Positions 1 to 17,553 of a stretch of 55,413 nt of DNA are shown piece after piece. Both the position numbers and the translations under genes were made by a program. Under the pieces are notes generated by a model. That model searched no databases. It was not told the DNA's origin and was given only the letters and a program-made list of their open reading frames with translations. Position 1 is the first letter of the stretch. Each line of letters begins with the position of its first letter. This DNA comes from Promethearchaeota archaeon (GTDB lineage: Archaea; Asgardarchaeota; Lokiarchaeia; Sigyniarchaeales; SOKP01): positions 1 to 55,413 of the forward strand of contig JAHLWS010000008.1 in the NCBI GenBank assembly GCA_019057795.1. The letters run 5' to 3'.

Positions 1-65
1 AGGGCTTATCCTTTGATAAGCTTACCATTCAGTAATACTCAATGTTCCGCATTCAATTGTATGAC

Positions 66-469
66 TTACATGTCGCACTTCAACCTTTCGCTGGCACTAT
101 CTATAGATCTTCCGGTCATTTCGGAATAAAAAAAGACTCTAAGAAAGTCCTCAGCGTCATATCTTGCGTTTTTACCTTTTCTACACCCCCACATTTGAGA
201 TTCGATTGAGTCACAAAAGTTTTTAAAAAATGCTAACATATATTCATTAGAGAAAAGTGGTTTTAACTCAGCTTCCAAATCTGAAAGTGGAGATAAATAT
301 TTTATGCGCATACATAAATATAACCACTTTTCTCTTATAAATTTTTAGATAGATTCCCACTGGAAACAAATGGAAAAAATTAATAGTTAATTAATAAAAA
401 TTAGAAGTAAATATTTATAGAAAAAGATTCAGTTAAAGAGGATTTAGAGTTCTACTTCCTTTGATACTG
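66..469 (-). mobile_element. Truncated IS element (ISH3/IS4-superfamily-like): N-terminal 81 aa of a transposase (66..311) plus a putative left terminal IR ending at 469
   Basis: The ORF ...ARYDAEDFLRVFFYSEMTGRSIDSASERL resembles N-termini of archaeal ISH3-like transposases but stops before any DDE domain. 451-469 reads CAGTATCAAAGGAAGTAGA on the minus strand, and ISH3-type ends begin with CAG. No matching second IR is seen in the window. Confidence 0.5.
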
Positions 470-526
470 ATACTTTAAAAATAAATCAGAAATTAATTAA
501 TATATTAAATTCAAAATTCTAGGCTT

Positions 527-1891
527 ATGATATTGGTTGAAAATAAAAGAACTCCTGCTTTTAGAGAAGACTTATGTGATTTGTGTGGTTTATGTTTTCA
601 TCTATGTCCCGTTCTACAATTACCTTTGGATGATGCAAAAGAAGAAATACAAAATTTAATCAAAGGTCGAAAGCCAAAATATGTACTTGAAAAATGCAAT
701 ACTTGTTTATCTTGCAATCTATACTGCCCACAAAACGCTAATCCATATCAATTGATACTCGAAAGATGGAATGATTTGTATAAAGAGAGAGGTGCGCCTC
801 CCCTTTACTATTTTATTTGTCCCACTGAAGATCGTAACATTTGGCAACTTCTAAATTTGTTTTTATCTAATCGAGAAAGAAGATGGATATATAAGTGGAT
901 GCATTACGTCCCTAAGAGTGAAGATACTGTTTTGTTAATTGGAAACTATACACATATATTCCCATTTATTATTGGGGGCAGTAAACTCCTTGATTACTTC
1001 AAACCTATTGATCGTATAGACCAATGGGAAGGAGGTGCTTACTTATACCAAGGAGGATACTTAGATATTGTACAAAAGATAGCTGAGAGGACAAAAAGAG
1101 ATTTTGATAGTTGGGGCGTCAAAAATGTTGTTGCCACTTTAGATGCTGTTGAGTATTTCTTCAGGGAAGTCCATCCAAAGGAAATGGGTGTGAAACACGA
1201 TCAGAATTTTATAAATTTTCATCGTTGGTTATTAGATAATATTAGCTCCGGAGAAATTAATCTTCAAAACCAACTTAATCTAACGGTTACTGTTCACGAT
1301 AATTGCTTTTCTAAAGCGTTAGGCGGATATTGGGAGGAACCAAGAACAATATTGGAGAAATGTGGTTGTAAAATACTTGAGATGAAACATATTAAAAAAG
1401 ATTCCCTATGTTGCGGGTTTGGAGCTGGAGCATCGTGGGTTAAGAATATGTCTCTACCTTTTGATATGATCTCTGAAGGAGTAAAAAAATTTAAGGAAGC
1501 AGAAGAAACCGGTGCAAAAGCTCTAATATCTTACTGTGGAGGATGTATTTATTTAATGTGGGCTACTAAGGAGTTGTTGAGGAGTAAAATAGATTTATAC
1601 CATATCATTGAAATTGTCAGGATGGCAATGGGCGAGGAATTGAGTTACCCTAAAGACCATATTAAACGAGCTTGGGATGTCATTGCGATTATAACATATT
1701 CTTTGCTACTATCGACTTTTAAGAAAAACTTTTACATAAAAAGTATTACATACGACAAAGATTTTAGCACATATAAACCAAAAAAGTATTTACTATTAAG
1801 GTTGATAAGGTATCTGTTTGATTTTAAGTTAATTAGAATCGTTTATGCTAAACTATTTTGTTTAATGATGCCAATAATGAAGACTCGATAA
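527..1891 (+). CDS. (Fe-S)-binding protein, HdrD/GlpC-like (2x[4Fe-4S] + CCG domain)
   Basis: N-terminal CDLCGLCFHLCP and CNTCLSCNLYCP ferredoxin motifs; C-terminal CCG domain (HDNC, LCCGFGAG, SYCGGC). Confidence 0.85.
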   Translation: MILVENKRTPAFREDLCDLCGLCFHLCPVLQLPLDDAKEEIQNLIKGRKPKYVLEKCNTCLSCNLYCPQNANPYQLILERWNDLYKERGAPPLYYFICPTEDRNIWQLLNLFLSNRERRWIYKWMHYVPKSEDTVLLIGNYTHIFPFIIGGSKLLDYFKPIDRIDQWEGGAYLYQGGYLDIVQKIAERTKRDFDSWGVKNVVATLDAVEYFFREVHPKEMGVKHDQNFINFHRWLLDNISSGEINLQNQLNLTVTVHDNCFSKALGGYWEEPRTILEKCGCKILEMKHIKKDSLCCGFGAGASWVKNMSLPFDMISEGVKKFKEAEETGAKALISYCGGCIYLMWATKELLRSKIDLYHIIEIVRMAMGEELSYPKDHIKRAWDVIAIITYSLLLSTFKKNFYIKSITYDKDFSTYKPKKYLLLRLIRYLFDFKLIRIVYAKLFCLMMPIMKTR

Positions 1892-10634: not shown

Positions 10635-11765
10635 ATGATGTCTGAAACTTATAAGAGCTTTATGATTTATGGATTAGAAAGTACCGGAGAAAAAGTAAGG
10701 TTAGATATTTCTGAAGATATCTTTCGGTTGAATAACGGATAAAATGTATTAGATCCTAACCAAGTGTTAATAATTATAAACGAGGGGCTAAGGAGGATCT
10801 ACATCTGGAAAGGCGTCAATTCACACGTCAGGAAAAAATTTATAGCATCACGGGTTGCCGCTGAATTACAAAACGATTTGGTTGTTGAAGGGCATTTTCA
10901 TCGGTGCAAAATTATCTCAGTAGACCAAGGAGACGAACCTAACGAATTCTTAAGGGCTTTTGGTTTTACGACAGTTGAGTTACCAGAACTTCTTGATCGA
11001 AATTCACAAGAGTTCAAACAAATTCATTCTATGTCTACAAAAACTGCGTCAAAATTAGAGGGAAAGAAAGTTCATAGTTGGAGGGGGCCTACTCCTTCTC
11101 TAAAAGGAAAAAGAGCCTCTCCAACAATTACTCAAACTATGGCGAAAAGAACAAAAGAAGAACCTAAAAAGACAATAAAATCCTTCAAAACTGACGAAAT
11201 GGAAATAATTGAGAAAATAGTAAAAAATAATGTTCCTGCCGATCTAAAAAGACAAAACCTAATCTTAGGTAATTTTCAAATTTTTGGTGCTACTATTAAA
11301 AAAGCTAAAATATTTGGCGAAGAAGTAGAAGAAGTCATGTGGGAACCAGTGAACTCGCTACCAGAAGGAATAATTGAACTAACTGATCGCACTCTAAGAA
11401 TTTATGTCGATGATACCTCTAAGACTATTGAAGGAATAGAAATTCTCCAAAAGCTCGAAGCACCTAAAATTGTAGAACCAATGGCTGAAAGGGGCGAAGA
11501 GGTAGACTACAATACTTGGACTGTTAAACAGTTAAGAATTTATTGTCAAAAGAACAAGATAAAAGTACCTATCTCTTGCAGAAAAGCACAAATTATAAAA
11601 CTAATTAAAAATGGGCCCTCCCAAGAATCTATTGAACCAGAATCAAATTATAAGACTTGGACAGTAAAGCAACTGAAAGAATACTGTAAAAAAAACGATA
11701 TCAAAGTGCTTTCTGCATACAGAAAAGCAGATTTACTTAAACTTGTGAAAGAACATCAAAAATAG
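10635..11765 (+). CDS. Asgard gelsolin-domain protein (1DGelX-like) with two C-terminal HeH/Rho-N/SAP-like repeats; in-frame TAA at 10740-10742 (possible pseudogene)
   Basis: Gelsolin-fold motifs LDPNQVLIII...IYIWKG...VDQGDEPNEFL. Tandem repeats YNTWTVKQLRIYCQKNKIKV...RKAQIIKLIK and YKTWTVKQLKEYCKKNDIKV...RKADLLKLVK. The in-frame ATG at 10635 is separated from ORF 10764 by a single TAA. Confidence 0.7.
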
Positions 11766-11804: not shown

Positions 11805-14771
11805 TTAACCCTGAGAAGCGTAGAAATCGTCAAAATTCTCTTGTAATTGATCCATATATAGCTTTCTCTTTCCAGGTATAACTTTTTCTGTAAGCATTTT
11901 TGCTTTCGCGTAGCAGGTGGTTGCTTCTACGCGCATTCCTAAGTGTTTATAGGACTGGGCCAATTTTAGAAAAGTGTGAAATGCGAACCAACCTCTTGGG
12001 TTGGCATCTAAAGCTTGAGTAAATTTCTCAATAGCGCCTTTATAATTTTTTGAGTTCATCAATACTTCTCCGTATGTGTCATACAGGTTTGCGTCGAGAG
12101 GATCGATTTCGATGGCTTTTTCAATTGTCTCAAGCGCTTCATCGTATCTTCCGATATTACTCAATGAAATGGCTCTATTGTTTAATAACCCTGGTGAATC
12201 CGGATAAAGGTCTAAGGCTTCGTCAATAGTCTTGATCGCTTCTGCATCTTTACCCATCGCGTAATAAGTAAAGCTTTTCTTTTGATACAGCGACTTACGC
12301 TCCTGTGGAAATCTTTTAATCATCTCATCGATTAGGGCCATTAGCTCGCCTCTCATATTATCATTCGTGAGATATAAGTGAATTTTTGTAGCATACATAT
12401 CGAAGTGGTCAGGGCTTAATTCAATTGCTTTTTCAATTTCAAATAAAGCATCTGCAATCCCATTTGTCTCATTTAAAATATAACTATACAGTTGATAATA
12501 CCTGGACAACTGTTTTTCACTCGGCTCCATTGATATCGCCTTCTCAAATTCTTCAACATAGAGCTCTTTGTCTGCTTTACTCGCGTCAAAATTGTATACA
12601 ATGTTAAATCCGTGAACGAATCCAGTAATAATATGAGAAAGTGGGTGGTTTGCGTAATGAAATTTTACCTTATTGACGATGCCTAAGGCTTTCTCGAATT
12701 TTCCTCGAGCTAAATACGAGAAGGAAAGTATCAAATACGCTGCCGTATCAACGCGGGGGTTATGCTTGAGTAAATTGAATTCAACCACCTGTTTAATCCA
12801 ATCTTTTCCCTCTTTGTAGTTATTTGTGAGCGTGTATAATAAAGCTTTCATTACTGAGAGTTCCAAGTCCTTAGGTTTTGTTTCAATTAATGAATTAATA
12901 AGTTCCAAAGGTTCGTCAATAGATTTTACACAGCACTCTTTATCTGTTAGATTACACAGGAATTTAGTTCGTTGGAGCAAAAAATTATCAGGATATTCAT
13001 CTAATGCTTCTTCAACAAAGCCTAAAGCTTTATCGTGATCTTGATTTATTAGTATTTGTGCTTTTTGAACAATAAGCGACACATCATAAGCCCTGCTTAA
13101 CCCTGATTCGATGGTTTCTAACGCTCTACTGTAATTACCCATAAAGAAATAGGTTAATGATTGAAACAAATAACCAATATATTCGTTAGGGTGTTTTATG
13201 ATGATTTCTTCAGTTAGCTCGAGCGAATCCTCTAACTCTCCATTGTATGTGTAAAATAAATCTTTCAGAAGCAATAACTCGATATCAGTTAAATTCTTTA
13301 GGTTCTCTGTAAGTAAGTCGTTTACTTTAGATAGTTTCCCTCTCGCTAATTTACGTTCAATTTTCGTCAAGAATTCCGAATTCTTAGGAAAGTATGTCTT
13401 TTTGAACTGAGATGTTCTAATAAAGTTAATTTTAGTCAAATAGAATATATCCAAAGTATCAAAAATTCTGTTGTGTAAGAAATAATACGCTTCGCTATCG
13501 GCTGGTTTGTTCATAGTACTCGCCGTATCAGATGTATCGAAACTTTGAATTACCTCAAAAACATTTTGGAAGGCGATCCCTTTTATTTTATCTGTGTGGT
13601 TGATCAAATTCTTCTCGCTCTCAAATTTATATGCCAAATGCTCGATATACTCAGGAATGAATTTTTTTAAAGCCGGTTTCAAATCGTCGTGGAATAAATT
13701 ACTACACATTTCGCTCGTTATATCTTCAAGTAACTCGTTGATATTGGGGATACTATATTGAACTCCACTCGCTTTCTGTAATTTACTCAAATACGTAAAC
13801 CTCCTAATGTAATCCTCGATAATTACATTGAGCATTTTTTCTAACCGCTCTTCTGCCTGAATGTAGTAGGTGTATTCATCTCTTACATTTAATTTAAAGA
13901 AGCGTATCGGATAGATGTTATCTTCAACGATCTTCTCAATGAAGAAGTTAAGTGTTGTTAGCTTTATATCGTATTCTAAAGCAAAATCTTTAGCCGTGAT
14001 GTAGTTAGGGTATTGATCCGGGTGATTAATAGAGAGATAAAGTAAAATTTTATCAAAATCCACCTCGTCGGACAAAGTGCTTTCAACCTTAGTATAATCC
14101 AACCTAAGTACCATGTTCAAAAATCTGTACTTTATCCCGTCATCATCGATATCGTAATCGTTAAAAAACTCCGTTACCTTGTCAGTTATTACCTCAACTC
14201 TCTTACTCTCTTCGTCTAATATTGATTGGCGATCCAGATCGTATTTTTTTAACATATTGAAGTATTCTAGTTCACCTGAATTAGTAATCTGATACTCACG
14301 GTTATTCTTTTCAACATAACCATTTTCAAGTAATAAATTCAAATTCTTTGACAATGAGGATTGATTTATTCTAAGGGGTTCCTCAAGGAAGTCTGACCAT
14401 CTGCAATGGTGGTTATTGTATAACATCCAAAGAATCCAATCATCGTAATTTCTCTTATTTGTTATAATCTCAGGTGGATAATTCAATGTTTTTTCAAGCG
14501 CACCTTTAACTTGAAGATTGGTATACTGTTTTCGACCTTCAGGTGTAATCTTATACTTACCTTTCTTCTCCTTCTCAATAAAACCATTATTAATTAAGAT
14601 TGTAAGATATTTCGACAAAGTTGCTTGACTTATATTTACGGGATCCGATTTAAAATCAGACCATGAACAATAGTCGTTATTATAGAGCATCCAGAGTATA
14701 ATATGCTCAAAATCTTTGTTGATTTTCATAGGTGTAATTATACCTACAGGTGGAAATTTTGGTATACTCAT
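11805..14771 (-). CDS. Tandem winged-helix (2x wHTH) + TPR-repeat protein, putative transcriptional regulator/peptide receptor
   Basis: Duplicated N-terminal unit ILWMLYNN..C.WSDF...P..I.Q..LSK.L..L..NG..EK....Y.IT..G (wHTH). The C-terminal half is a long run of TPRs, e.g. NNRAISLSNIGRYDEALETIEKAIEIDP and YDTYGEVLMNSKNYKGAIEKFTQALDANP. Confidence 0.85.
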   Translation of the reverse strand: MSIPKFPPVGIITPMKINKDFEHIILWMLYNNDYCSWSDFKSDPVNISQATLSKYLTILINNGFIEKEKKGKYKITPEGRKQYTNLQVKGALEKTLNYPPEIITNKRNYDDWILWMLYNNHHCRWSDFLEEPLRINQSSLSKNLNLLLENGYVEKNNREYQITNSGELEYFNMLKKYDLDRQSILDEESKRVEVITDKVTEFFNDYDIDDDGIKYRFLNMVLRLDYTKVESTLSDEVDFDKILLYLSINHPDQYPNYITAKDFALEYDIKLTTLNFFIEKIVEDNIYPIRFFKLNVRDEYTYYIQAEERLEKMLNVIIEDYIRRFTYLSKLQKASGVQYSIPNINELLEDITSEMCSNLFHDDLKPALKKFIPEYIEHLAYKFESEKNLINHTDKIKGIAFQNVFEVIQSFDTSDTASTMNKPADSEAYYFLHNRIFDTLDIFYLTKINFIRTSQFKKTYFPKNSEFLTKIERKLARGKLSKVNDLLTENLKNLTDIELLLLKDLFYTYNGELEDSLELTEEIIIKHPNEYIGYLFQSLTYFFMGNYSRALETIESGLSRAYDVSLIVQKAQILINQDHDKALGFVEEALDEYPDNFLLQRTKFLCNLTDKECCVKSIDEPLELINSLIETKPKDLELSVMKALLYTLTNNYKEGKDWIKQVVEFNLLKHNPRVDTAAYLILSFSYLARGKFEKALGIVNKVKFHYANHPLSHIITGFVHGFNIVYNFDASKADKELYVEEFEKAISMEPSEKQLSRYYQLYSYILNETNGIADALFEIEKAIELSPDHFDMYATKIHLYLTNDNMRGELMALIDEMIKRFPQERKSLYQKKSFTYYAMGKDAEAIKTIDEALDLYPDSPGLLNNRAISLSNIGRYDEALETIEKAIEIDPLDANLYDTYGEVLMNSKNYKGAIEKFTQALDANPRGWFAFHTFLKLAQSYKHLGMRVEATTCYAKAKMLTEKVIPGKRKLYMDQLQENFDDFYASQG

Positions 14772-14792
14772 GATTAAATAATGGTTTTGTAT

Positions 14793-14862
14793 CTATATAA
14801 GGATTCTTATTCGCATCGAACTTCGAAGTTCGTTCGAACTTCCTAAAGTCAAACTATATAAG
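14793..14862. promoter_or_regulatory. Divergent promoter: two TATA boxes (CTATATAAG at 14793-14801 and 14854-14862) flanking a palindromic operator (14817-14842)
   Basis: CGAACTTCGAAGTTCG is a perfect 16-bp palindrome (14817-14832), followed by TT and a third half-site CGAACTTC (14835-14842). Confidence 0.7.
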
Positions 14863-14931
14863 AACTGCGAATTTAATAAAATTAAAAAAAAAAAAAAAGA
14901 ACTTAAAAAAAAAGTAAAGAAGTGAAAAAAA

Positions 14932-15219
14932 ATGGCACAAGCAATAGTAAAAAAAACCATTTCCAAGGACGACATAGAAATTGCGGACCCAATTTCTGCC
15001 CAGAATCAAGCACCTGAGGTGTTAAAGCCTCAGGTGCTGGTCAAAGCAGCGCTAAAAAATCAAGCTAAATTACAAACACCTAAGAAAAAACTCTTGAATG
15101 TGTTTAAAAAAATCAAGTATAACGCGAGAATTTCGGAAGAAAGTATTTATATAAATAATTATAATGGAAATCTTGACGCAAAGCTTCTTGGAGCTCGCAA
15201 TTCCATGTTAAATTTCTAA
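14932..15219 (+). CDS. Small hypothetical protein (95 aa), first member of the peptide array, ends ...MLNF
   Basis: ATG preceded by an A-rich leader and GAAGTGAAAAAAA; T-tract after the stop. Confidence 0.65.
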   Translation: MAQAIVKKTISKDDIEIADPISAQNQAPEVLKPQVLVKAALKNQAKLQTPKKKLLNVFKKIKYNARISEESIYINNYNGNLDAKLLGARNSMLNF

Positions 15220-15269
15220 TTAAAAATAATTTTTTTTTTAACCAGGAAAAAAAAAAGAGGTAAAATAAA

Positions 15270-15344
15270 ATGAAAAGGAATGAAAATAAAAAGCTCATAA
15301 AAATGGCAGAATTTAACCCAGTATATTTAGTTTTTAGATTTTAA
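15270..15344 (+). CDS. Small peptide ORF A, 24 aa: MKRNENKKLIKMAEFNPVYLVFRF
   Basis: SD-like GAGGT in GAGGTAAAATAAA-ATG; context shared with neighbouring ORFs; T-tract after the stop. Confidence 0.65.
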   Translation: MKRNENKKLIKMAEFNPVYLVFRF

Positions 15345-15415
15345 TTAAATAATAATTTTTTTTATAATTTTTAAGCCAAAAAAACCAAAAAAAAGCAAAA
15401 ACGAGGTAAAATAAA

Positions 15416-15484
15416 ATGGAAAAGTATGAGGAGAGAATAATAATTAAGAACGCAGGATACCTTCCTGATCGTTTAGAGTTTTAA
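15416..15484 (+). CDS. Small peptide ORF B, 22 aa: MEKYEERIIIKNAGYLPDRLEF
   Basis: Same GAGGTAAAATAAA-ATG context as ORF A, with an A-rich leader. Confidence 0.65.
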   Translation: MEKYEERIIIKNAGYLPDRLEF

Positions 15485-15573
15485 CCTAAATTAAACTATT
15501 TATTTAATTTAATATTCAGAATTTAACCAAAAAAAAAAAAAAACAACCAAGAAATAAAAACGAGTGAAATAAA

Positions 15574-15651
15574 ATGACAAGAAAAGAGAAAATAGATAAA
15601 AAAACAATCCTAAACCCTACGGGATATAATATTACATATTTCAGATATTAG
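15574..15651 (+). CDS. Small peptide ORF C, 25 aa: MTRKEKIDKKTILNPTGYNITYFRY
   Basis: AAAAACGAGTGAAATAAA-ATG context (ORF B has AAAAACGAGGTAAAATAAA-ATG); long T-tract after the stop. Confidence 0.65.
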   Translation: MTRKEKIDKKTILNPTGYNITYFRY

Positions 15652-15657
15652 AACTAA

Positions 15658-15668
15658 TTTTTTTTTTT
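15658..15668 (+). terminator. Oligo-T tract, putative archaeal terminator of the peptide array
   Basis: Run of 11 T beginning 7 nt after the ORF C stop. Confidence 0.45.
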
Positions 15669-15722
15669 ACCTTTATATTATATTTCAATTCTCATCAGTT
15701 TAACTTTTCCATATTTGTTTTG

Positions 15723-15880
15723 TTAAAAGGGATAATATTTACGAGAATGGGTAAGGTTTTTGCCTTTAATTAGTCTTTTCAAGTCATTTTCAATTGATTT
15801 TATATCGTAATCTCCTTCCCATCTTAATTTCGTATATTTGTTCAAATTTCACCTCATTCGCGCGATTTATGATATCATTT
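15723..15880 (-). pseudogene. Frameshifted remnant paralogous to the C-terminus of ORF 17206..17553
   Basis: Translates as KFEQIYEIKM/EGDYDIKSIENDLKRLIKGKNLTHSRKYYPF* with one frameshift near 15819, versus NFKPIYEIKVEGDNNFRLIEKDVKDLIKGKKGTSFRSNYPL* in the 17206 ORF. Confidence 0.7.
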
Positions 15881-16033
15881 TTTTAATATTTAATATTATT
15901 ATTTATATGGTTGTATGGGTAACTGTTATTTAGTAAACAAAATACGGTTTCTAAGCATTGCATTAAAAAAATTAATTGTAATGAGATAGTAGAGTGTATT
16001 ACTAATTGTCTTTCTAAAATATAAATCTAAAAC

Positions 16034-17080
16034 TTGGCTAAAGGTGTGAAAAAAATAGTAAATAATAGATTAATAAAAAAAATAACTACAAGAATACTAA
16101 CAGATAGTTCTGAAATTTTAACATATTTGCAATTTGGAACTAATATTCCAATTCTACCCGATCTTTCAAAATACATTTTACATGATCTGGAGTACTTTAA
16201 AGCAAAATCCATTTTGCTATTGGAAAGTGGAAATCCTGCTGGACAAGTATTAGTATATGATGATGGGCGAGATACCTTATTTTTTGGATATTTCGGCATA
16301 TTAAATCACAATAATAATAAAATAAACTTGTTGATTGATGCACTTATTGAGTTTGCGAAAGAAAAGGAATTAAAATTTATAAGAGGACCAATCAATATAC
16401 CGGTGATTATATATGGATGGGGTTTTATGAAAGAAGGAAGTTTTGAAAATTTGTTTATTGGAAAACCCGTGAATCCTCCAATATATCCAAATTCATTCTT
16501 AAAGAAGAAATTTTATGTAAAATCTGAACAGGTGACTTGGTTAGGGCCCCGTTTACCTCGATTTGATCCATGGAAACTCAAGAGATATGATTATAGTGAT
16601 TACGAATATTTTTACCCTAATGATATTGCTGATTTTAAAAAGTATAAATCCGAATTTTTAAGAATTCATGCAGAAAACTTGCCCCTCTCCGCTCAAATTA
16701 CTCCGAATATAAATGGGGTTTTTGATAGTTATGTAGACTTTGTTTTTAGATATGGTTTTAACTTTATGATTTTTTTTGTAAAATATAAACCTACAGAAAA
16801 AATTGTTGCGTGTGGAGCTTATTTACCAAACCCTTTTAGAAAGGATTCAAAAGGAAACTATGATTCTTGTGTAATTTATACATGGGCAGTTGAATCTAAA
16901 CATAGGCGTAAGGGGTTAGGAATGCTAATGTATGGGGCTACTTCTCAATTACTTTGGAAACATAAAATTAAATATGGTATCGGACCTATGCCTAAAAGTA
17001 ATACTGCCAATATGGGTTTTGCGGTGAAACTTGGTGGTGTAATTAGTAGAACTCATCTTATTTTTGAATACAAGGTATAA
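16034..17080 (+). CDS. GNAT-family N-acyltransferase (YghO-like, two-domain)
   Basis: FFGYFG, FIRGPIN, NPPIY motifs; C-terminal acyl-CoA motif AVESKHRRKGLG. Confidence 0.75.
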   Translation: MAKGVKKIVNNRLIKKITTRILTDSSEILTYLQFGTNIPILPDLSKYILHDLEYFKAKSILLLESGNPAGQVLVYDDGRDTLFFGYFGILNHNNNKINLLIDALIEFAKEKELKFIRGPINIPVIIYGWGFMKEGSFENLFIGKPVNPPIYPNSFLKKKFYVKSEQVTWLGPRLPRFDPWKLKRYDYSDYEYFYPNDIADFKKYKSEFLRIHAENLPLSAQITPNINGVFDSYVDFVFRYGFNFMIFFVKYKPTEKIVACGAYLPNPFRKDSKGNYDSCVIYTWAVESKHRRKGLGMLMYGATSQLLWKHKIKYGIGPMPKSNTANMGFAVKLGGVISRTHLIFEYKV

Positions 17081-17205: not shown

Positions 17206-17553
17206 TCATAAAGGGTAATTAGAGCGAAATGAAGTTCCTTTTTTTCCTTTAATCAAATCTTTAACGTCCTTTTCGATTAATCTAAAATTATTATCTCCTT
17301 CAACTTTAATTTCATATATTGGTTTAAAATTCTTTTTGTTTTGAGTATCAAGATTATTTTCGAATAAACGGATTAAATAAGAACAAGGTGCATCAATAAT
17401 TGATATTATTATCCACTTCCTATTTTCTTCTTCATTAACATCTTTATAATTAAATTTTACATTTTGTAAAGTGATTTCACATATATTTTCGAATTTTTTA
17501 ATTTTTATTTGATAATTATTTTCCAGTTTTTCTAATGCCACTAAAAGATTCAA
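17206..17553 (-). CDS. Hypothetical protein (start uncertain; frame open to about 17595)
   Basis: 115-aa ORF; a degraded paralog at 15723-15880 supports a coding origin. Confidence 0.55.
   Translation of the reverse strand: MNLLVALEKLENNYQIKIKKFENICEITLQNVKFNYKDVNEEENRKWIIISIIDAPCSYLIRLFENNLDTQNKKNFKPIYEIKVEGDNNFRLIEKDVKDLIKGKKGTSFRSNYPL

Follow-up and report, generated by a model that had tools for sequence, protein, structure and literature searches.

A winged-helix–TPR regulator and a divergent array of micro-protein genes form a conserved gene module in a family of Lokiarchaeia

In the Rgg/SHP pairs of the RRNPP systems, small peptide genes (SHP, about 20–35 codons) stand divergent from a receptor that combines a DNA-binding domain with a domain of the tetratricopeptide repeat (TPR) type. 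We analyzed an archaeal locus of this appearance in a 55,413-nucleotide stretch of contig JAHLWS010000008.1 (assembly GCA_019057795.1, Promethearchaeota archaeon, Lokiarchaeia), hereafter the window. Here a gene for a 988-aa protein with winged helix-turn-helix (wHTH) domains and TPRs, the regulator, is divergent from a gene for a 95-aa protein, P95, which is followed by three micro-open reading frames (micro-ORFs), A, B, and C. A preliminary description of the locus had proposed a peptide-signaling array made of these four small ORFs, and their coordinates and translations were all found to be correct against the ORF listing and the sequence. The comparisons described below show, at the level of sequence conservation, that A, B, and P95 are real conserved genes under purifying selection, and the whole is a self-contained gene module of one Lokiarchaeia family. 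The layout is most like that of Rgg/SHP-type RRNPP pairs, of which the module is at most an independent analog.

The likeness to RRNPP systems, and to Rgg/SHP in particular, lies in a cytoplasmic protein that joins a DNA-binding part to a TPR-type part, in tiny divergent genes, and in several paralogs per genome. The regulator has the architecture of an RRNPP receptor, with an N-terminal DNA-binding domain and a C-terminal TPR-type domain, and the agreement is one of architecture only. RRNPP receptors carry an XRE-type HTH and a TPR superhelix of about 200–300 aa, whereas the regulator carries two winged helices, about 250 aa of additional sequence in the middle, and a superhelix roughly 550 aa long. 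Moreover, the products encoded opposite it comprise three hydrophilic peptides with no export segment plus the 95-aa protein, no transporter is linked to the locus, no sequence or fold match connects it to RRNPP proteins, and the host is an archaeon. Homology of the regulator to Rap, Rgg, NprR, PlcR, PrgX, or AimR was not found: its HTH domains belong to winged-helix families, and no RRNPP receptor was among the top 50 Foldseek matches of the regulator model. No export signal, neither a Sec signal nor a hydrophobic SHP-type body, was found in A, B, or C, which are charged and conserved over most of their length. As these two defining tests, receptor homology and an export-competent pro-peptide, failed, the module can be at most an independent analog of RRNPP. 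The earlier proposal of a peptide-sensing counterpart of RRNPP was partly supported, in the architecture, the divergent small genes, and their conserved linkage. Conserved small genes do adjoin the regulator gene; pairs homologous to A and B are also found at a distance from any regulator, and the role of the peptides as cognate ligands is hypothetical.

TPR receptors of C-terminal tails (Hop/Tom70 with EEVD, PEX5 with PTS1, and APC3/Cdc27 with the Ile-Arg tail) share the long TPR superhelix with the regulator, and in the candidate ligands at this locus the extreme C-terminus is conserved and the stop position fixed; unlike the regulator, Hop, Tom70, PEX5, and APC3/Cdc27 are not transcription factors. 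Tom70/71, Cdc27, OGT, Hop, and PEX5 are among the best fold or sequence matches of the regulator, which reflects the consensus TPR fold and not a specific kinship. The DNA-binding part resembles MarR/PadR autoregulators, in that its winged helices match MarR, HTH_34, and HTH_45 and a palindromic putative operator lies in its own promoter region, between its own promoter and that of the divergent target. In contrast to those proteins, it has tandem winged helices in one chain, three half-sites, a very large C-terminal TPR region, and micro-proteins as targets. The small products recall the archaeal micro-proteins of Haloferax and Methanosarcina, some of them zinc-finger proteins, which are shorter than 100 aa and missed by annotation, and paralogous modules indeed contain zinc-ribbon proteins of 32–60 aa. 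However, A, B, and C are only 22–26 aa long, lack a cysteine motif, form arrays of fixed order, and are tied to one regulator family.

The genome of the window and the relatives used for comparison are metagenome-assembled genomes of Promethearchaeia (Lokiarchaeia); among the relatives are Loki_b31, ABR02, ABR04, ABR11, and Hel_238_bin105. The order regulator, P95, A, B, C was found in the genomes of 14 species of the same Lokiarchaeial genus, and this order, with the same frames and stop positions, recurred in 25 of 26 metagenome loci that extend at least 230 nt beyond P95. Contigs reached through a look-up of the proteins provided more examples. The preliminary description had named the recurrence of micro-ORFs with conserved frames and C-termini in homologous loci as a check on its proposal, and this check was passed. 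Of the 24 other genomes of the genus, 8 had an ortholog of the regulator (63–93% identity over the first 480 residues), with P95 as the divergent neighbor. From syntenic positions, 82 distinct homologous sequences were collected (31 of A, 34 of B, and 17 of C); the annotated sense frame was open in every one of them, and the other sense frames were closed.

Selection was evaluated from the ratio of nonsynonymous to synonymous substitution rates (dN/dS), which was calculated for the micro-ORFs from independent nearest-neighbor pairs with 95% confidence intervals (CI). The ratio was 0.30 for B (95% CI 0.23–0.40), where differences at the three codon positions numbered 177/83/279, and 0.51 for A (95% CI 0.35–0.78); values for P95 were 0.33–0.6. 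For C, the ratio of 0.70 was not significant (95% CI 0.39–1.66). As this interval spans 1, C is backed by the conservation of its frame, length, and motif, and not by the selection test. Frames and ends conserved across species, together with purifying selection in B, A, and P95, are what is expected of small-protein genes. None of the three micro-ORFs had been recorded by any gene caller. A collection of 15 billion predicted proteins did not contain their exact sequences, since gene callers drop ORFs shorter than about 30 codons, and P95 is present in that collection as a hypothetical protein.

Each peptide has its own conserved core. Peptide A is conserved in its C-terminal half, Phe/Tyr-Asn-Pro-x-x-Leu-Val/Ile-x-Arg/Lys-Phe/Tyr. 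Peptide B, the most conserved and most persistent member of the array, has the core Ile-Ile-Ile-Lys-Asn-Ala-Gly-Tyr-x-Pro-x-Arg-Leu-Glu/Asp-Phe, and all matches to its profile in the genus genomes lay within open frames of about 25 codons. Peptide C has the core Ile-Leu-Asn-Pro-Thr-Gly-Tyr and the end Arg-Phe/Tyr; its Asn-Pro is kept in 15 of 17 homologs and the Thr-Gly/Arg-Tyr that follows in all 17. A central proline and an aromatic last residue had been pointed out before, and both observations hold among the homologs: most A sequences keep the proline, as Asn-Pro, and so do most C sequences and part of the B sequences, while 26 of the 31 A sequences and all 17 C sequences end in Phe or Tyr, and 33 of the 34 B sequences end in Phe (21) or Met (12). 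The penultimate position is occupied by a basic residue in A and C and in most B sequences by an acidic one. The suggestion that the array encodes several diversified ligands was not supported, as orthologous peptides are conserved and not strongly diversified.

The homologs of P95 form 183 clusters, all hypothetical and all from Lokiarchaeia, and its gene is divergent from that of the regulator at every locus that has both. Searches of Pfam and the ESM Atlas assigned P95 to no family. An AlphaFold2 model had a pLDDT of 58, with a disordered N-terminal half and two low-confidence helices in the C-terminal half. P95 ends in Gly/Ala-Tyr/Ala-Arg-Asn-x-x-x-Asn-Phe, in most homologs Gly-Tyr-Arg-Asn-x-Leu-x-Asn-Phe, which is similar to the tail of A. 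The tails of P95, A, B, and C are thus all similar to Gly-Tyr-Asn-Pro-x-x-Leu-x-Arg/Lys-Phe/Tyr, and their C-terminus is free. Readings of these tails as HbYX proteasome-activator motifs or PIP boxes were rejected because the residue spacing does not fit. The P95 profile matched 62 of 135 family genomes, in 4 of 13 genera, and several of the matches directly adjoin regulator paralogs. Some P95-like loci contained no detectable micro-ORFs; P95 is therefore the more general partner of the regulator, and B-like peptides are frequent and not universal.

The units of A, B, and C are paralogs by their DNA sequence: in all three, an A-rich leader is followed by a Shine-Dalgarno (SD) motif, GAGGT or GAGTG, and, after a fixed spacer, by the ATG codon. 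The orthologous micro-ORFs retain the same leader type, similar lengths, and a fixed spacing between SD and start. The pattern GAG(G)T[GA]AAATAAAATG has four copies in the 4.95-Mb genome, three of which lie in this array. The SD motif is complementary to the 3' end of the 16S rRNA, GGATCACCTCCT, and GAGG occurs upstream of only about 9% of the long ORFs in the genome, which makes the SD of the micro-ORFs unusually strong for this host. A genome-wide scan for a leader and SD followed by an ORF of 15–40 aa and a T-run returned this array as the sole match. T-runs lie 3' of the stop codons of P95, A, and C, those of A and C falling in the repeat families D5 and D6. The T10 run after P95 is likely an archaeal terminator and may double as part of the next promoter; scans for sigma-70 promoters and intrinsic terminators were uninformative for an archaeal host. 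Unbroken A runs of 10–15 nt (14885–14900, 15247–15256, and 15531–15545) were also seen 5' of the SD motifs of P95, A, and C. They are kept as A-rich tracts in the orthologs, and a leader, a terminator for the opposite strand, and slippage are candidate roles. The features of the locus are listed in Table 1.

Table 1. Features of the regulator–micro-protein locus, in positions of the window.
Feature	Position	Strand	Description	Basis
Regulator gene	11805–14771	−	988 aa	ORF listing and sequence
wHTH 1 of regulator	residues ~21–90		winged helix	Pfam and AlphaFold2 model
wHTH 2 of regulator	residues 109–175		winged helix	Pfam and AlphaFold2 model
Third unit of regulator	residues 236–305		winged-helix-like	AlphaFold2 model
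Linker of regulator	loop residues 384–427		helical, with disordered loop	AlphaFold2 model
TPR superhelix of regulator	residues ~434–985		continuous, ~27 helices	AlphaFold2 model
Regulator–P95 intergenic region			160 bp	
TATA-like box	14793–14802	−	CTATATAAGG, facing the regulator gene; putative function	sequence; kept in orthologous intergenic regions
Putative operator	14818–14842		three 7-bp half-sites, GAACTTC / GAAGTTC / GAACTTC	
TATA-like box	14854–14863	+	CTATATAAGA, facing the P95 gene; putative function	sequence
P95 gene	14932–15219	+	95-aa small protein	ORF listing, homologs
T10 run	15230–15239	+	3' of the P95 stop codon	read from sequence
Leader of A	15247–15269	+	A-rich, GAGGT SD motif	
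Micro-ORF A	15270–15344	+	24 aa, net charge about +4	syntenic homologs, dN/dS
Leader of B	15393–15415	+	CGAGGT SD motif	
Micro-ORF B	15416–15484	+	22 aa, charge about −1	homologs, dN/dS, codon-position differences
Leader of C	15551–15573	+	GAGTG SD motif	
Micro-ORF C	15574–15651	+	25 aa, net charge about +4	homologs, shared motif
T11 run	15658–15668	+	closes the array	read from sequence

The palindromic putative operator that had been noticed between the divergent genes was confirmed. The first two of its three half-sites form a 14-bp palindrome, and the whole is flanked by two outward-facing CTATATAAG boxes. In the 4.95-Mb genome it is the sole palindrome of that kind and the sole cluster of three half-sites, against a background of 0.16 half-sites per kb. 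It is retained at eight orthologous loci, and the same half-site lies upstream of five regulator paralogs with 43–48% identity. As the operator is unique, kept in orthologs, and echoed by half-sites upstream of paralogs, these data strongly suggest that the regulator autoregulates and controls the divergent promoter through this element.

The wHTH–TPR architecture of the regulator was likewise as first described. Pfam matched HTH_45 (3.5e-11), HTH_34 (4.7e-10), and MarR (1.6e-6), each twice, and many TPR families. In the AlphaFold2 model, which was built on 50 homologs and had a pLDDT of 83, the helix-helix-helix-hairpin topology of the winged helices is visible, and a third winged-helix-like unit is added to the two expected. 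The top 50 Foldseek matches were generic long TPR scaffolds (TTC7B, OGT, APC/C subunits, Ski3, and Tom70/71), and a sequence search of the Protein Data Bank returned consensus TPR proteins, OGT, and TOM70. The family has more than 950 homologs, all from Asgard metagenomes and named only as TPR, wHTH, or hypothetical proteins, with 2–9 paralogous copies per genome.

The linkage between regulator and small genes extends to distant paralogs. In other genera, regulators only 43–45% identical to this one have the same layout, consisting of the regulator, repeats of the GAACTTC type, a P95-like gene of 70–90 aa, and micro-ORFs of 22–30 codons that carry the central Ile-Ile-Ile-Lys-Asn motif of B. 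Within the genus, the orthologous regulator and type-1 peptide B occurred in the same 9 of the 25 genomes searched with both queries; as the two are physically linked, this co-occurrence shows only that they are inherited, gained, and lost as a block. The module was found in none of 11 genomes of a sister family of this order that has single-contig genomes.

Paralogous modules often include zinc-ribbon micro-proteins. These have two Cys-x-x-Cys pairs, lie between the P95-like gene and the Ile-Ile-Ile-Lys-Asn micro-ORF (loci L082, L083, L084, L056, and L058), and are mostly uncalled. At L083 (contig JAHQWK010000004.1), a 27-codon ORF upstream of the regulator has a P95-like start and a B-like continuation, the picture that an in-frame deletion of the P95 body would leave. 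Genes for a small GTPase (Arf/Ras/Roc) and for Roadblock/LC7 proteins often lie 1–3 kb from paralogous modules of regulator and P95-like gene (L063, L067, L082, and L087).

Taken together, the best reading of the locus, in which we place about even confidence, is that an autoregulated wHTH–TPR factor controls genes for cytoplasmic micro-proteins, with possible feedback through its TPR region. The regulator would bind the triple GAACTTC operator between the two divergent TATA boxes and, once bound, would control both its own expression and that of the mini-genes on the other side. Translation of the latter would yield the 95-aa protein, for the most part disordered, and the three peptides, each about 23 aa long. 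As none of the four has an export signal, P95, A, B, and C would act in the cytoplasm as micro-proteins. We infer operator binding, co-regulation, and cytoplasmic location from these features. For the common C-terminal tail, docking on a partner protein is the most likely role. The leading candidate is the cis-encoded TPR superhelix, because the shared tail is strictly terminal, P95 is predicted to be mostly disordered, and the pairing recurs across deep paralogs; proteins that fold on a partner are commonly disordered. Such docking would close a feedback loop on the operator. This last step is speculative and rather unlikely, since, as the regulator-free cassettes show, the peptides can have a function elsewhere. 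A prediction of the complex between regulator residues 176–988 and P95, both supplied as alignments, gave a score of 0.00, with an uncertain fold of the partner and without controls, and speaks neither for nor against binding. The broader view that Lokiarchaeial wHTH–TPR proteins are peptide-responsive factors, in which the aromatic tails of P95, A, B, and C dock in the TPR region and switch binding to the GAACTTC operator, is doubtful at present.

Several observations weigh against an autoregulated factor acting with its neighboring micro-proteins. Divergent placement is by itself no argument for binding, because any pair of regulator and target shows it, and the selection test on C was not significant. 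Components of the module can be lost: G005 lacks P95, G020 lacks A, and G142 lacks the two. The two paralogs of the regulator in its own genome (contigs C80 and C21) have no micro-ORFs or small-gene partners. Furthermore, homologs of the A-B pair without a regulator nearby lie directly upstream of the gene for elongation factor 2 (EF-2) in six genomes and beside a HAD-like hydrolase gene in five, and an upstream element of about 130 nt is conserved among these pairs wherever in the genome they lie. The peptides therefore need no cis-encoded receptor and may have another target.

These pairs are also a ground for supposing that A, B, and C are micro-proteins with a target unrelated to the regulator, encoded by multi-copy mini-gene cassettes and acting elsewhere, for example on translation. 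The wHTH–TPR protein would then be no more than the transcription factor of one of the copies, and its TPR region would sense something else. Apart from the pairs with an upstream element of their own, many regulator paralogs lack small-gene partners, and one genome (G008) has four cassettes, one of which is a second full A-B-C array 1.9 kb past the first, without P95 or a regulator. However, it is hard to explain without a functional tie why Ile-Ile-Ile-Lys-Asn micro-ORFs adjoin regulator paralogs of 43–45% identity in several genera, and the tail common to the peptides and P95, the universal partner gene, points to one docking site. We regard a target unrelated to the regulator as unlikely.

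Within the ~130-nt element (loci L088–L100, e.g., L099:2830–2961), a GTTCA direct repeat and a TATA-like box were observed, together with an inverted repeat in what is presumably the leader. The element may be a portable promoter/leader or the binding site of another regulator paralog. The genome of the window contains no copy of it, and no A-B pair lies in its EF-2 upstream region.

Extracellular signaling in the manner of RRNPP quorum sensing would require that the peptides be exported, possibly processed, and re-imported, and that their binding to the TPR region change the occupancy of the operator. The Rgg/SHP-like layout of a DNA-binding TPR protein with divergent genes of 22–26 codons agrees with this, as do the conserved C-terminal residue and stop position and the 2–9 regulator paralogs per genome, which recall Rap/Phr or Rgg expansions. 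Nevertheless, nothing in the peptides points to export: the absence of a classical signal peptide, already conceded in the preliminary description, was confirmed, and A, B, and C contain no hydrophobic stretch of at least 10 residues. No exporter, protease, or Opp-type importer is conserved beside the module among the orthologous loci, whose neighbors vary (the genome itself was not searched for Opp). A short processed core is disfavored by conservation over the whole length, the charged N-terminus included, and the similarity of P95-like tails across paralog subfamilies argues against pherotype specificity. Together with the fold search, which had no RRNPP receptor in its top 50, these observations make a secreted signal improbable.

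A cis-acting role, in which translation of leader or arrest peptides itself controls neighboring genes by stalling at the Ile run or the C-terminus, is suggested by the length of 22–26 codons, the conserved C-terminal half after a variable N-terminus, and the three Ile codons of B, all reminiscent of attenuator and arrest peptides such as the ilv and his leaders and the fungal arginine attenuator peptide; some A-B pairs, moreover, lie upstream of EF-2 on the same strand. In contrast to such leaders, nothing is conserved downstream on the same strand in the window or the orthologs, where a T-run ends the array and the next gene varies or is on the opposite strand. Each ORF is also preceded by a strong SD of its own, T-runs lie after A and C, and three different peptides are kept in fixed order, so that control in cis is very improbable. 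It is hardly credible that the ORFs are not genes but chance frames in an A-rich spacer or a noncoding RNA repeat, a view favored by low-complexity DNA with 51% A, an approximately 8% chance that 23 codons stay open in such DNA, and a dN/dS of C not below 1, and disfavored by the same frames open in all 82 distinct homologs with the other sense frames closed, the coding-type substitutions in A and B, the fixed spacing of start and SD, and the absence of any Rfam match in 14600–16100.

Three peptide families kept in dozens of Asgard genomes are thus tied to a large, uncharacterized, Asgard-only regulator family. In agreement with the preliminary description, which knew of no such locus, literature searches on archaeal RRNPP-like systems and on Lokiarchaeial wHTH–TPR regulators found nothing relevant, which is a sign of novelty and not of support; the micro-protein families and their link to the regulator family appear to be undescribed. 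If the autoregulated factor does respond to the peptides, this would be the first ribosomal-peptide-sensing regulatory circuit described in archaea, independent of bacterial RRNPP, whether within or between cells. If the tails bind the TPR region, a transcription switch that senses peptides and is built on a long TPR scaffold of eukaryote-like kind would exist in the archaea most closely related to eukaryotes. Should the TPR region not bind them, the locus would still offer a compact module that is easy to test, with a single regulator, an operator of 25 bp, and four small products accessible by synthesis, from a lineage in which the site or signal of hardly any transcription factor is known. 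We know of no cultured member of this family.

The surroundings of the module are variable. GNAT, ThiF, and other neighboring genes were considered as partners in modification or export and rejected: they adjoin the array in none but the closest relatives, where their order differs, and at other orthologous loci the neighbors are unrelated. As the flanking genes differ between orthologous loci, these genes are not parts of the module. Beside the array, a 40-aa ORF (15723–15845, minus strand) is 46% identical to the C-terminal 35 residues of a 115-aa ORF at 17206–17553 (E = 2e-8), and by this match it is probably the remnant of a duplicated gene, left by a rearrangement that adjoined the array. 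On the other side, convergent with the regulator gene, the gene at 10764–11765 encodes a gelsolin-like domain fused to two HeH/SAP/Rho_N-like repeats, and this gelsolin-like neighbor is also present at several orthologous loci (L085, L086, and L091).

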